Positions 173-3,508 of a stretch of 64,000 nt of DNA are shown piece by piece. Position 1 is the first letter of the stretch. Each line of letters begins with the position of its first letter. A program made the translations under genes and the position numbers. This DNA is from Waddliaceae bacterium (GTDB lineage Bacteria > Chlamydiota > Chlamydiia > Chlamydiales > SLFE01). The stretch lies in the NCBI GenBank assembly GCA_963783885.1, contig CAWAPJ010000025.1:1-64000 (forward strand). Direction: 5' to 3'. The notes under the pieces are model-generated. The model saw only the letters and a program-made list of their open reading frames with translations, did not search any database and had not been told where the DNA came from.

Positions 173-964
173 CTAAAAAAACAGCATCCGTATGCCGACT
201 ACGAAAAGGAAGGCCGCAAAGATCTTTTTAAGGGCTTGAATCGGCAAGAGATAGGCGACTTGAGCTGCTCCCCACGAAAAAAAGGGGCTTGAGAGGTTAA
301 TGCCCAGCACTGCCGGCCAGTAAATATAGCCGCTTGTCCATTCTGGATCGCCAGTTTGATAAGTCCCTGTAAAGTAAAATGTTAAGGTTCCAACTAGCGA
401 GACGATGAATGAAAGGGCAGCGCAAATTCCCACCGCTTGGTAGATCGACAGTTTTCGATAGGAGATCAGAAATGGAACTCCCATAGACCCGGCTCCGATA
501 CCCAAAAGAGATGAGAGTGTGCCGATTATGAGAGAAAATGCCCGTGTCACCTGATCGTTGGGTTTTTCTGCTCGGGATTGCCACTCGATGTTAAAAAATA
601 TTTGCAAAGAGATCAGGAGGGCGAAAATGCCCACAGAAATGCTCAGAACTTTTGATTGAAAAAATCCCGCTACGATGCCGCCTAAAATAGAGCCGACGAT
701 AATCCCCCCTGCCATCAGTCTAAGGACAGGGATGACGACAACCCCGTTGCGGTAGTGGGCCCAGGTAGAAAAAAGAGTTGTCGTCACCATTGAGGCTAGA
801 GAGGAACCGATGGCGAAATGCATGAGGCTGCCGGAGGGAAATCCCATATAATAGAAGGTCGTGGAGAGGAGAGGGACGACCACGAGCCCCCCGCCAACTC
901 CTAAAAGGCCCGCAAAAAGACCCGCCAGAGCCCCGATGCCGAGATAAACCAGTAGTAAAATCAT
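173..964 (-). CDS. TauE/SafE family sulfite/organosulfonate exporter
   Basis: 263-aa polytopic membrane protein with N-terminal GLFAGLLGVGGGLVVVP and a second-half repeat SSLLGIGAG. Confidence 0.85.
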   Translation of the reverse strand: MILLLVYLGIGALAGLFAGLLGVGGGLVVVPLLSTTFYYMGFPSGSLMHFAIGSSLASMVTTTLFSTWAHYRNGVVVIPVLRLMAGGIIVGSILGGIVAGFFQSKVLSISVGIFALLISLQIFFNIEWQSRAEKPNDQVTRAFSLIIGTLSSLLGIGAGSMGVPFLISYRKLSIYQAVGICAALSFIVSLVGTLTFYFTGTYQTGDPEWTSGYIYWPAVLGINLSSPFFSWGAAQVAYLLPIQALKKIFAAFLFVVGIRMLFF

Positions 965-972
965 CTTTTACA

Positions 973-1001
973 TTGAAAAATAGTGTTATAACTGTTAATA
1001 T
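973..1001 (+). promoter_or_regulatory. Putative sigma70/sigma66 promoter for the leader-peptide/brnQ transcript
   Basis: TTGAAA (973-978), 17-bp spacer, TAATAT (996-1001), with TG at 993-994. Confidence 0.4.
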
Positions 1002-1046
1002 GAGGTTTATACGAATTAGTTGTACAATTCAAGGTGTGATTTAACT

Positions 1047-1088
1047 ATGCCAAACCTTTTTACCAATCGATGTTGTTGTTGCCTCTAG
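1047..1088 (+). CDS. Cys-rich leader peptide MPNLFTNRCCCCL
   Basis: ATG at 1047 to TAG at 1088, four consecutive Cys codons TGT TGT TGT TGC, SD-like AAGGTG at 1031-1036, ends 43 nt before the brnQ start. Confidence 0.7.
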   Translation: MPNLFTNRCCCCL

Positions 1089-1124
1089 CGGCAGGCTCAT
1101 TCTTAAACAACAACAAAAGAGGTT
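1053..1124 (+). promoter_or_regulatory. SD-sequestering RNA structure (putative translational attenuator)
   Basis: TGTTGTTGTT (1071-1080) is the exact reverse complement of AACAACAACA (1106-1115). AACCT (1053-1057) pairs with AGGTT (1120-1124), which overlaps the brnQ SD. Inner pair GCCT/AGGC. Confidence 0.65.
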
Positions 1125-1131
1125 AAATCAC

Positions 1132-2241
1132 ATGTCAAAAGCAAAAACATTTTCTCCCTTTACAATAGGACTTGCGTTTTTCTCGATGTTTTTCGGATCG
1201 GGAAATCTAGTCTTTCCTTTATTTCTCGGTCAATATGCCGGGGATAAATGGCCTATCGTAACAATCGGATTTATTCTATCGGGTGTGATCGGCCCCCTTT
1301 TCGGGGTTGTGGCTATGGTGGCCTATCAAGGGGATACAAAGAAATTCTTTTCTACGATCGGTAAGCGGAACGCTTTGATTTTTGTTTCGATTTTGATGAT
1401 GGTCTGGATTCCCTTCGGCGCGGCTCCAAGGTGCATACGGGTCGCCTATGAGTCTTTCAACGCGGCTTTTCCCATCCTGCCCCTTTGGTTTTTCGGCATT
1501 TTGTATTCGGCTTTAGTCTACTTTTCTATTGTCCGCAAAAACAGAATGATCGAGGTTCTCGGCTATTTCCTCACACCTGCCCTTTTGATTTGCCTGGCGG
1601 TTTTATGGATCTTTGGGATGATGACAGCGGAAGCGCCGGCCCCTGCAGACCGGACCGCTTTGAATGTCTTTCACATTGGACTTGCCCATGGTTATGAGAC
1701 CATGGATCTGATCGCCTCTTTCTTCTTTTCGATATCCATTATCAGTGTGATCCAGGCGGAAAAAAAATCTGTGGTCAAAACAATGAAAAAGGCTCTTCTT
1801 TCCGGGTTTATCGGCATGTCGGTTTTGGCCTTCGTTTATGCCGCCTTGATTTTTATGGCTTCTCGAAACGCCGCCCTTCTCGCTCCTCTTGCGAAAGATC
1901 AGCTTCTTCCCTTCATTTCCATGCAGTTTTTGGGCCCCAAACTCAGCCTGATTCCTGTCGGGCTGGTCTTCCTTGCCTGCATCACGACATCTGTTGCCAT
2001 GCTTTCGGTATTTGCCGACTTTATCAAGGAAAATTACGTGAAGCGAGGCAAGTCGAACCTTTCGGTATTATCGGGAGTCGGACTTACCTATTTCCTTTCT
2101 CTGATCACCTTTGACGGCCTGATGGTTGTCACAACACCTATCCTGGAAATCAGCTGCCCTCTTCTCATTCTTTTGGGGATCTACAATCTGGCTAAAAAAT
2201 TCTTTTTCAGCCCCTCTCTTGAAGATGTAAGTATTCAGTAG
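1132..2241 (+). CDS. brnQ: BrnQ/LIVCS family amino acid:cation symporter
   Basis: GLAFFSMFFGSGNLVFP and GYETMDLIASFFF signatures; multiple TM segments. Confidence 0.85.
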   Translation: MSKAKTFSPFTIGLAFFSMFFGSGNLVFPLFLGQYAGDKWPIVTIGFILSGVIGPLFGVVAMVAYQGDTKKFFSTIGKRNALIFVSILMMVWIPFGAAPRCIRVAYESFNAAFPILPLWFFGILYSALVYFSIVRKNRMIEVLGYFLTPALLICLAVLWIFGMMTAEAPAPADRTALNVFHIGLAHGYETMDLIASFFFSISIISVIQAEKKSVVKTMKKALLSGFIGMSVLAFVYAALIFMASRNAALLAPLAKDQLLPFISMQFLGPKLSLIPVGLVFLACITTSVAMLSVFADFIKENYVKRGKSNLSVLSGVGLTYFLSLITFDGLMVVTTPILEISCPLLILLGIYNLAKKFFFSPSLEDVSIQ

Positions 2242-2389: not shown

Positions 2390-3508
2390 TCAACGCCTTT
2401 TGTGTTCTTCGTCGATTTGTTCGGCAAGGGCGAGGTAGGAGTCGTAGCGAAGGGCGGAGAGCTTGCCCTTTTCAACTGCTTCGATGACGGCGCAGCCGGG
2501 TTCGTGTATGTGGGTGCAGTTGGGAAAGCCGCATTCGGGCAGGTAGGGTTGAAACTCTTTGAAGTAAAAGGGAAGCTCCTCTTTTTCGAGATCCCAGACC
2601 CCAAAGCTTTTGATGCCGGGCGTGTCGATGACAAAGCCGCCGAATTCAAGGGGGATGAGGGTGGCGTAAGTTGTCGTATGAGCCCCTTTGCGGGTACGCT
2701 GCACAACATCGCCAATTTCAAGGTCAAGTCCTGTCAGCCGGTTAATAAGCGATGATTTACCAACCCCCGACTGTCCGGAAAAAACCGAAGCTTTGTCCTT
2801 CATAACCTGTTTGAGGTCCTCCATCCCTTCTCCGGTATCCGCGCTGACGGCGATGACCGGAATTTCGGCTTTTTTGTGGGCTTCCAAAAAATCTTCGAGC
2901 AGCTCTTTTTCTCCATCGCCCCCGAGCAAATCGATTTTGTTGACGACGACGATCGGCGCCATGTTCCCTTTTTCCGCGGCGATAATATAGCGGTCGACAA
3001 GAGGCGGTTTCAAAGGGGGATTGACAACGGAGGCTGTAATAAGAACCTGGTCGATATTGGCGGCGATGAGCTGCTGTTTTTTGTGGGAGATGGTTTCGGC
3101 TCTGGAAAGAGTGGATTTTCGGGGCTGAACGTAGTGGATAAACCCCTCTTTTTCATGGGTGGGTTCGAAAAGGACGAAGTCGCCGACAGTCACAAGGTTT
3201 TTATATTGGGTTTTTGTCTTTTTTAAGAGTCCCCGGAGCTGGCAAAGATACTGCTTTCCCTTTTCGTCAACGATAATCCCTTCGGATTTGATGGAGATCA
3301 CGCGACCCCGCTTAAGCTTTTCCCTGTCGAGCTTAGAGAGGATTTCTTTGGAAAGATCCTCCTGGAATTTTTCAAAATCGGTTTTTTTATACTTGGAGCG
3401 GTCTTTGGCCTCGGCTCGTTTTCTCTGCTGTTTGGAAGTTTTTTTGTCCTTGCGGTAAAACTCTTCCTCGAGATGGCCGGCATCGATTTTTTTCTTCTTT
3501 TTCTTCAT
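2390..3508 (-). CDS. rsgA: Ribosome small subunit-dependent GTPase A
   Basis: Circularly permuted GTPase motifs NKID, GQSGVGKSS, HTTT, DTPG, plus the C-terminal CGFPNCTHIHEPGC zinc site. Confidence 0.95.
   Translation of the reverse strand: MKKKKKKIDAGHLEEEFYRKDKKTSKQQRKRAEAKDRSKYKKTDFEKFQEDLSKEILSKLDREKLKRGRVISIKSEGIIVDEKGKQYLCQLRGLLKKTKTQYKNLVTVGDFVLFEPTHEKEGFIHYVQPRKSTLSRAETISHKKQQLIAANIDQVLITASVVNPPLKPPLVDRYIIAAEKGNMAPIVVVNKIDLLGGDGEKELLEDFLEAHKKAEIPVIAVSADTGEGMEDLKQVMKDKASVFSGQSGVGKSSLINRLTGLDLEIGDVVQRTRKGAHTTTYATLIPLEFGGFVIDTPGIKSFGVWDLEKEELPFYFKEFQPYLPECGFPNCTHIHEPGCAVIEAVEKGKLSALRYDSYLALAEQIDEEHKRR

Follow-up and report, generated by a model that had tools for sequence, protein, structure and literature searches.

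The window analyzed here is the whole 64,000-nucleotide stretch of DNA from a Waddliaceae bacterium of the phylum Chlamydiota (assembly GCA_963783885.1, contig CAWAPJ010000025.1, positions 1 to 64,000), and the element under study is the leader of a brnQ-type transporter gene near its start. The gene lies on the plus strand (1132..2241, ATG at 1132) and encodes a protein of 369 amino acids. A gene for a TauE/SafE-family membrane transporter, assigned by a profile match to PF01925, lies divergently upstream on the minus strand (173..964). The leader of brnQ contains a short upstream open reading frame (uORF) with a run of cysteine codons, and it is predicted to fold back on the brnQ initiation region. 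On balance, we consider it rather likely that this is a conserved cysteine-codon leader controlling brnQ translation.

Based on a consensus scan, a promoter-like site (TTGAAA-17-TAATAT) occupies 973..1001 of the plus strand. The transcript is predicted to start near 1008, which would give brnQ a leader of ~124 nt, and a TTGNNN-16/18-TANNNT site is present at the equivalent place in six of nine orthologous leaders. By direct reading, a Shine-Dalgarno (SD)-like site, AAGGTG (1031-1036), lies 10 nt before the uORF ATG, and its duplex with the anti-SD motif has an energy of -6.4 kcal/mol. The uORF, MPNLFTNRCCCCL, comprises 13 codons and a stop (1047-1088; ATG at 1047, TAG at 1086-1088), and its codons 9-12 are four Cys codons in a row, TGT TGT TGT TGC (1071-1082). 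Across the long open reading frames (ORFs) of the genome, Cys accounts for 1.29% of codons, and TGT is the minority Cys codon (28%). The bases of the Cys codons supply the 5' arm of an inner helix, TGTTGTTGTT (1071-1080), and its exact reverse complement, AACAACAACA (1106-1115), supplies the 3' arm. Additionally, the 5' arm of a middle helix, which is an anti-SD, lies in uORF codons 3-5 (1054-1061), and that of an outer helix, GTGTGATTTAAC (1034-1045), lies between the uORF SD and the uORF ATG. The 3' arms of the middle and outer helices (1116-1133) span the brnQ SD (AAGAGG, 1117-1122, also by direct reading), the spacer, and the AU of the start codon. All of these parts are on the plus strand.

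Much of this layout had been laid out in an original prediction for this DNA. It had claimed a 13-codon uORF with its own SD-like site, exact complementarity between the Cys codons and a segment next to the brnQ SD, and pairing of AACCT (1053-1057) with AGGTT in the SD. All three claims hold on inspection; AACCT faces AGGTT at 1120-1124, and the minimum free energy (MFE) fold uses 1054-1061 with 1116-1123. The BrnQ-family identity that it had assigned agrees with a match to PF05525 (E 1.3e-53). The further statement that no terminator lies between the uORF and brnQ is nearly right: none is convincing, but a simple scan finds one weak site (1076-1094) of seven pairs, G-T included, with the tail GCTCATTCTT. 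Five weak terminator-like sites occur in the region versus 2.1 +/- 1.6 in shuffled sequences. Since a convincing intrinsic terminator appears to be absent from the leader, control would be translational. A search of 800-1400 against Rfam (cmscan, E <=10) returned only a 16.9-bit chance match to RF02860, whose gathering score is 99.

Relatives of this locus were drawn from 41 genomes that cover the order with one genome per family and also include the family of the window, from genome contigs, and from one metagenome scan. Of 115 BrnQ loci, five with <120 nt upstream were dropped, and 110 were examined. They divide into a clade of nine distinct orthologous loci (13 rows including duplicates) and 97 rows of other BrnQ homologues. 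The orthologues share 62-100% protein identity with the window included (62-95% for the others) and come from uncultured Waddliaceae-like metagenome-assembled genomes (MAGs) or metagenome contigs; the source of locus L006 is also a MAG. A Cys-rich uORF lies 75-92 nt upstream of brnQ in all nine. The peptides are MPNLFTNRCCCCL, MPTLFTNRCCCCL, MNKSCLNNRCCC, VKSLPIKRCCCPVCRQP (with a GTG start), MFIKIYCCCCTCTH, MKSYLFTRCCWVCC, MKSCLFKRCCWVCCQR, MKSYLIKRCCWVCCQQ, and MKSCLIKRCCWVCCQR. Together, they contain 39 Cys in 131 codons (30%) versus 1.29% genome-wide, and each has 4-5 Cys, of which at least two are encoded by adjacent codons. No ATG-led short ORF with adjacent Cys codons was found in the 97 other rows (<=43% identity); five of these rows contain TTG- or GTG-led short ORFs with CC at other positions.

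The Cys codons are the only feature common to all nine peptides. The Cys run follows the uORF start at a spacing of 18, 24, or 27 nt and is in frame every time, the stop follows 0-5 codons past the last Cys, and every leader has its last Cys at codon 12 or 14. Between close relatives, Ser and Leu codons differ synonymously (TCC/TCT/TCA and TTG/TTA/CTA). Moreover, the uORF is preceded by an SD-like site of -4.0 kcal/mol or lower in seven of the nine leaders; among the long ORFs of the genome, such sites precede 39% of first ATGs and 19% of internal ATGs. Conservation of a Cys-codon uORF in orthologous leaders had been named beforehand as a check, and it is found throughout the clade, with the remaining peptide, its length, and its stop position free to vary. 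Judged from these sequences, the conservation of the Cys-codon uORF is not due to chance.

A comparable SD-led Cys uORF was found neither upstream of the sister-clade BrnQ genes nor upstream of the second BrnQ paralogue of the same genome. A TTG-led frame reading LICCKCQ... at -70 of locus L010 has no SD-like site by reading and was taken as chance. One sister-clade BrnQ gene (L008, G021:C3) has a different SD-led uORF (-6.4 kcal/mol) of 23 codons, MFRPFSNSDFNLFASTGTTTRKG, which extends from 131 to 62 nt upstream. It contains three consecutive Thr codons and may be either a chance occurrence or a leader for a different amino acid.

Within the genome (2.16 Mb, 44.8% G+C), the six frames hold 207 runs of at least three TGY codons and 12 runs of at least four, and only 19 TGY runs lie outside ORFs of at least 100 amino acids. 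In the whole genome, no four-Cys-codon run other than that of the uORF studied here lies in an ATG-led short ORF that is followed closely (after 43 nt) by a long ORF. A second candidate Cys leader, MSIMFCPNFQKTNPASCCC..., on contig C29 (G000:C29) was rejected, as it lies inside a split P-type ATPase reading frame. That frame is broken on the minus strand (G000:C29:118500-119800, L128; ORFs 396-956 and 1109-1300 of L128), either by a frameshift or by an assembly error, and the out-of-frame stretch between the pieces reads CCC. A further Cys candidate, the TTG-led LVRNNSCRCCCINHH, lies on contig C28.

The leader from 1031 to 1137 folds with -28.8 kcal/mol (z = -3.27), and none of 200 shuffles was as stable. 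The outermost helix comprises 12 bp between 1034-1045 (GTGTGATTTAAC) and 1122-1133 (GTTAAATCACAT) and appears in both the MFE and the centroid folds; the original prediction had overlooked this helix, as well as the Leu and Val readings of the Cys run in other frames. The 3' arm is paired throughout 1106-1133, that is, over the anti-Cys segment, the SD, the spacer, and the AU of the brnQ start. On the 5' side, formed by the uORF, two internal loops interrupt the pairing, and the uORF ATG sits in one of them. In this fold, the ribosome-binding site (RBS) of the uORF and that of brnQ are masked together. The brnQ SD and start pair chiefly with the uORF initiation region, and the Cys codons form the inner helix only.

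The same arrangement recurs across the clade. In all nine MFE folds, the uORF initiation region is the pairing partner of the brnQ SD and start. The expectation that the fold closes the brnQ SD is thereby borne out, SD and start being masked in each leader. The more specific claim that the Cys-codon 5' arm does the masking stands only in part: the leader masks the SD, but mainly through the 5' part of the uORF and its initiation region. The z-scores of the nine leaders are -3.27, -2.79, -2.60, -1.79, -0.74, -3.20, -3.27, -1.29, and -4.18. The mean pairing probability over -14..+3 of brnQ is 0.92 in the window and ranges from 0.66 to 0.92 across the nine leaders, versus a median of 0.55 in 96 other BrnQ loci, four of which reach at least 0.8. 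A rank test on this RBS pairing gives p 9e-6, a value that is overstated because the leaders are kin and not independent.

Covariation in the two arms shows in several comparisons. Duplexes of each brnQ RBS with the initiation region of its own uORF range from -12.9 to -19.5 kcal/mol, whereas duplexes at the same distance in the 96 control loci average -6.3 +/- 2.8 kcal/mol, and five of the 96 reach -12 or lower. When the 5' arms of one subtype (the window, L002, and L006) are paired with the RBSs of the other, the duplexes are mostly weak (-3.8 to -11.0), and we conclude from this that the arms have co-varied. Between the window (GUGUGAUUUAAC/GUUAAAUCACAU) and L003 (GUGUGAUGAAAU/AUUUCAUCACAU), there are three differences per arm, every one of which is compensated; similarly, the outer helices of the window and L006 differ by a compensated 1-bp insertion. 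A covariance model built from three leaders recovered six of the nine at E <=0.2. In the model-fitted alignment of these six, 93.2% of cells pair versus 81.3 +/- 2.0 in shuffles, and changes on both sides occur in 11 of 28 pairs versus 4.9 +/- 1.4, with none of 500 shuffles equaling that number. Slid controls on the fitted alignment pair at 38-57%. Collectively, compensatory changes back the leader fold, and the covarying pairing that had been named as a check together with the uORF is present.

The choice of per-sequence folds, a matrix of cognate and non-cognate duplexes, and a covariance-model alignment replaced a standard consensus analysis. MAFFT followed by RNAalifold on the nine leaders yielded only a spurious 8-pair hairpin, because the 5' arms stand in different registers relative to the uORF ATG. 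The first covariance-model search also matched the minus strand of the window (1048-1155, 16.7 bits); this match is the reverse complement of the hairpin and was excluded by a lower E-value threshold.

To relate the fold to ribosome position, the cost of opening brnQ -15..+5 was calculated in constrained folds with footprints from P-12, P-15, or P-18 to P+15. For the free leader of the window, opening the RBS costs 11.0 kcal/mol. Whichever Cys codon occupies the A site, the cost is 10.2-10.8 kcal/mol for the P-12..P+15 footprint and 10.4-11.9 kcal/mol for the wider ones. The original prediction that a stall on the Cys codons frees the SD is therefore not borne out in its simple form by these folds of the window's leader, where the cost moves only from 11.0 to 10.2-11.9 kcal/mol. 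The outer helix, located upstream of the footprint of the stalled ribosome, persists under the stall. Folding with a ribosome footprint, which had also been suggested, gives a divided result: the window is not opened, but in six of the nine leaders opening becomes cheaper by ~3-9 kcal/mol. In these six, an anti-SD (UCCU) lies at uORF +7..+10, and it is a stall at the first Cys codons that cuts the cost. Occupying the uORF start itself (mask -15..+15 around the ATG) frees the RBS in silico in all nine leaders, lowering the cost from 6.9-16.7 to 1.7-3.7 kcal/mol. The constrained folds of the leader showed no alternative hairpin that would counter the sequestration.

We propose that the element would act as a ribosome-mediated, cysteine-sensing translational attenuator within the ~124-nt brnQ leader. 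In the free leader, one long interrupted hairpin would mask both RBSs; its 3' arm (1106-1133) would hold the brnQ SD, spacer, and start codon, and its 5' arm would be the uORF with the region upstream of its ATG, codons 3-5, and the Cys codons. The uORF is probably translated, and since its RBS emerges first on the nascent transcript, a ribosome could load while the 3' arm has yet to be transcribed. When Cys-tRNA is plentiful, the ribosome would complete the 13 codons and terminate at 1086-1088, upstream of the 3' arm; after termination, the hairpin would close, and brnQ would be poorly translated. With scarce Cys-tRNA, the ribosome would stall on codons 9-12 and block the inner, nucleating helix. 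A following ribosome or 30S subunit would then be caught at the uORF start, roughly a ribosome length short of the last Cys codon, so that the outer arm is occupied, the brnQ RBS opens, and the transporter is made. Judged from ribosome footprint sizes, codons 12-14 are about the distance at which a second ribosome fits on the start behind a stalled one. Alternatively or jointly, the blocked inner helix might delay closure long enough for a 30S subunit to take the brnQ RBS, a kinetic route. The direction of regulation would thus be induction by scarcity. The full form of this scheme, in which a stall at the last Cys codon traps a second ribosome on the uORF start and the BrnQ paralogue imports cysteine or a precursor, is offered as a tentative proposal that we hold to be possible rather than likely.

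Several points weigh against cysteine-responsive control. In the constrained folds, a single stall leaves the brnQ RBS closed in the window, likewise in L002, and under most settings in L006; because the outer helix is outside the footprint, the decisive opening step depends on the proposed queue or kinetic argument. The uORF SD of L006 is weak (-2.3 kcal/mol), and three of the nine leaders have weak fold z-scores (-0.74, -1.29, and -1.79). The nine leaders belong to one family and are hence not independent. The covariance model missed L004, L037, and L006, and its alignment was fitted to the structure. The modeled masking of brnQ is not exceptional within the genome: its RBS opening cost of 10.6 kcal/mol ranks 184th among 880 SD-preceded long ORFs (mean 8.1, sd 3.4), a control set whose start calls are uncertain and whose upstream sequence is mostly coding. 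Finally, we know of no characterized LIVCS transporter reported to carry cysteine.

Some of these points fit a structure that works without amino-acid sensing. The hairpin would then simply limit brnQ translation or be opened by temperature, a protein, or a small RNA, and the uORF would be no more than a constitutive coupling device that exposes the brnQ RBS transiently and whose Cys codons are there since UGU repeats make a convenient arm. The conserved, covarying feature is indeed the helix, a single Cys-codon stall leaves the RBS of the window closed in silico, and occupancy of the uORF start alone suffices for opening. However, the SD-led frame reads the run as Cys in all nine leaders despite spacings of 18, 24, and 27 nt, and extra Cys codons stand outside the paired run, at codons 4, 5, 12, 13, and 14. 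Leaders with CCWVCC keep their second Cys pair even though its pairing with the anti-Cys segment differs. A Cys content of 30% in the uORF versus 1.3% in the genome is also hard to explain by the needs of a helix alone. We therefore regard a purely structural, non-sensing role as unlikely.

A leucine-sensing leader is the most conspicuous alternative and, for a branched-chain amino-acid carrier, a serious one. Here, the frame from the ATG inside the conserved CGATG (MLLLPLAAGSFLNNNKRG, 1070..1126, plus strand) would be translated, Leu-tRNA would be sensed, and the Cys codons would arise incidentally from TTG repeats. Within the run, the two frames are indistinguishable, as (TGY)n equals (YTG)n in the next frame. 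The Leu-frame ATG is present in eight of the nine leaders, and in those eight the rare Arg codon CGA (1068-1070; 10% of Arg codons), which supplies the A of this ATG, is invariant; the invariance might reflect slow decoding at this codon, a part in the structure, or use of the ATG as an alternative start. The peptides of this frame are rich in Leu (e.g., MLLGLLLAVTP and MLLLMLAI), and Leu sensing would suit a branched-chain carrier, as the characterized BrnQ-family carriers described in PMC2494555 move Leu, Ile, and Val. In contrast, none of the nine Leu-frame starts has SD complementarity (+0.4 to +3.5 kcal/mol), whereas the Cys-frame starts range from -2.3 to -6.8 kcal/mol. The Leu-frame ATG is missing in L006, and a 1-nt indel between the window and the 95%-identical L002 turns the 18-codon Leu frame into one of 58 codons that runs out of frame into brnQ. 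Furthermore, the extra Cys codons upstream of the Leu-frame start (codon 4 or 5 in L003, L038, and L039) count for the Cys frame only. The Leu codons would occupy positions 2-4, right after the start, unlike in the attenuators known to us, and the genome has a separate, ordinary BrnQ paralogue. Collectively, these observations make Leu sensing improbable. The third frame was likewise set aside: its Val run, (GTT)n, would be an N-terminal extension of brnQ, as it is brnQ's own frame, open for 29 codons and without a start codon.

A functional Cys-rich micropeptide, either metal- or redox-active or a small transporter subunit, might instead be co-expressed with brnQ. Among four metagenome leaders, the sequence MKS[YC]L[FI][KT]RCCWVCC... 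is well kept with some synonymous codon variation. Across the clade, however, only the Cys codons are shared, the length (12-17 codons) and both termini differ, and L003 stops right after CCC. Reading these peptides of <20 residues, for which no family search was made, reveals neither an evident signal peptide nor a hydrophobic segment. This explanation appears very improbable. Finally, an inverse logic, in which a stall at codons 9-10 blocks uORF initiation so that the upstream arm clamps the brnQ RBS and shortage lowers the transporter, is consistent with the trailing edge of a ribosome with codon 9 or 10 in the A site (+7 to +13) overlapping the space of an initiating ribosome and with the persistence of the outer helix of the window in the constrained folds, but it is hardly credible given that the amino-acid-codon leaders known to us, among them those described in 10.1101/834739 and PMC8632094, induce on starvation, that a first-Cys-codon stall lowers the opening cost by ~3-9 kcal/mol in six of nine leaders, and that a last Cys codon at position 12-14 in all nine leaves room for a second ribosome.

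The transporter itself is diverged. Its protein matches PF05525 over residues 10-360 with 182.9 bits (cut-off 22.3) and scores below the equivalog models, with 185.4 bits against the 243.4 cut-off of TIGR00796 and 86.3 against 790 for NF011962. In a tree of 107 proteins, from which two truncated clade members were left out, the Cys-leader BrnQ clade is monophyletic (support 1.0) on a long stem. Ten clade-specific replacements, e.g., Y342C, L290M, T315G, and G107E, fall at sites conserved in 100 other homologues. A search of solved structures by sequence found no relative of this BrnQ. The same genome encodes a second, ordinary BrnQ paralogue without a uORF (G000:C1:37960-39036, 37% identity). 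The divergent TauE/SafE gene adjoins the Cys-leader brnQ in all nine distinct clade loci, and none was found next to the other BrnQ-homologue loci within 1.5-kb flanks. Together with the genes described next, these features make a sulfur amino-acid role for the BrnQ paralogue plausible; the transporter may import cysteine, and a cysteine precursor is an equally possible substrate.

Other genes place cysteine in context. An OmcB-like gene of 513 amino acids (G000:C6:37603-39629, L127:304-2330) carries PF03504 (Chlamydia cysteine-rich OMP6) and DUF11 repeats, and it is preceded by a Cys-rich small ORF of 97 amino acids that is OmcA-like by reading, without a Pfam match. By their sequences, the two look like a chlamydial cysteine-rich envelope gene pair, and the PF03504 match supports the original prediction's view that this DNA is from a chlamydia. 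Additionally, a CysK/CBS-like pyridoxal phosphate (PLP) enzyme of 338 amino acids is encoded at G000:C38:17024-17938 (L120:1444-2457, minus strand) and falls between the models for cystathionine beta-synthase (391 bits, below the cut-off) and cysteine synthase. No cysE was found in the genome, which is 89% complete.

Three side observations concern the surroundings of the leader and the genome. The reverse complement of the leader (1131-1048, minus strand) also forms a hairpin and reads CCC in one frame that lacks a start codon. The distance from it to the TauE/SafE gene downstream is 76 nt, and depending on where the promoter of that gene lies, its 5' untranslated region (UTR) could be antisense to the brnQ leader. 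A gene for an RsgA-type ribosome small-subunit GTPase (2390-3508, minus strand) is convergent to brnQ and lies downstream of brnQ in L006 too. Elsewhere in the genome, more than 20 near-identical copies of a repeat element, marked by its open frame NSKSYHFCVGHLRLRIVFNPQNSKDFFADDINCCCVSFHDAPFFWLRKYHRDYCR, occur on contigs C1, C2, C4-C6, C8, C10-C12, C14, C16, C17, C22, C28, C42, and C44 (e.g., C1:89923 and C2:146600); the repeat probably represents a small element of mobile or repetitive nature.

The envelope proteins of chlamydiae include cysteine-rich ones that are cross-linked by disulfides, and to our knowledge, the cysteine supply of these bacteria is poorly understood. A Cys leader before a diverged BrnQ paralogue is a concrete candidate for a cysteine-responsive uptake system. 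If this is true, the LIVCS family would gain a new substrate and its first member with a sulfur amino-acid role, and BrnQ and TauE/SafE would form a dedicated cysteine-supply module in chlamydiae that build cysteine-rich envelopes. The mutual masking of the sensor and target RBSs, which sets the element apart from the mycobacterial poly-Cys attenuators and from ermC, would make it a small system in which ribosome queueing could be studied as a regulatory signal. Moreover, leader-peptide sensing in Chlamydiota may extend beyond the tryptophan genes. The element is confined to one family of uncultured organisms and is known from sequence alone; a search for RNA evidence turned up 12 sequencing runs, all of DNA.

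The closest known counterparts are the poly-Cys leaderless short ORFs of mycobacteria (Ms5788A and the 'Cys ribulon'; Canestrari et al.), which have been shown experimentally to be cysteine-responsive translational attenuators and whose Cys codons, as that source describes them, pair near the downstream SD (10.1101/834739). Similar to that type, the brnQ leader has a short ORF with a Cys-codon run upstream on the same mRNA, its RNA pairs around the downstream SD, and control would be translational, without a terminator, with ribosome pausing at low Cys-tRNA as the proposed signal. In contrast to the leaderless mycobacterial ORFs, the uORF here is SD-led behind a predicted ~39-nt 5' UTR: AAGGTG lies 10 nt before the ATG, and the -10 of the promoter-like site ends at 1001, ~45 nt before the ATG, the transcript start being predicted. 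Masking here is mainly by the initiation region of the short ORF, involves two RBSs together, and leaves the Cys codons to an inner helix of their own. A LIVCS transporter is targeted instead of the cysteine and sulfur metabolism genes described there, the element is one locus in its genome and not a regulon, and its phylum is Chlamydiota.

A second counterpart is uORFC-8-2 upstream of cysS in Rhodobacterales, described as a transcription attenuator with a U-run terminator (PMC8632094). The two share a conserved AUG-led uORF with tandem Cys codons in a stem and proposed sensing of Cys-tRNA, according to the same source. However, the brnQ leader masks an RBS and has no convincing terminator, whereas uORFC-8-2 precedes the gene for cysteinyl-tRNA synthetase. 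In ermC, drug-dependent nascent-peptide arrest operates through a four-segment alternative-hairpin scheme. Similar to the ermCL/ermC pair as outlined in 10.1101/834739, a ribosome arrested on a leader ORF would shift the pairing and expose a downstream SD; in contrast, the brnQ leader showed no such alternative hairpin, and its signal would presumably be a hungry codon.

The classical leaders (trp, his, leu, and ilv) choose between a terminator and an antiterminator and precede biosynthetic operons. As in these leaders and in the Leu-rich attenuator peptide of Staphylococcus aureus ilv-leu as described in PMC5794164, a run of codons for the sensed amino acid overlaps an RNA structure. Unlike in them, the brnQ leader shows no convincing terminator with a competing antiterminator. 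In the same phylum, trpRBA of Chlamydia trachomatis is reported to combine tryptophan-dependent attenuation with the YtgR repressor at the level of transcription (PMC7755916). Amino-acid-dependent attenuation within Chlamydiota is thus common to both, but the amino acid and the genes differ, and trpRBA as described there is not a Cys-codon leader that masks an RBS. A limited literature search turned up neither a description of a Cys leader in Chlamydiota nor a brnQ gene under leader-peptide control. Cys-codon leaders as such are already known; what is new here is the phylum, the SD-led uORF, the transporter target, and the mutual masking of the two RBSs.

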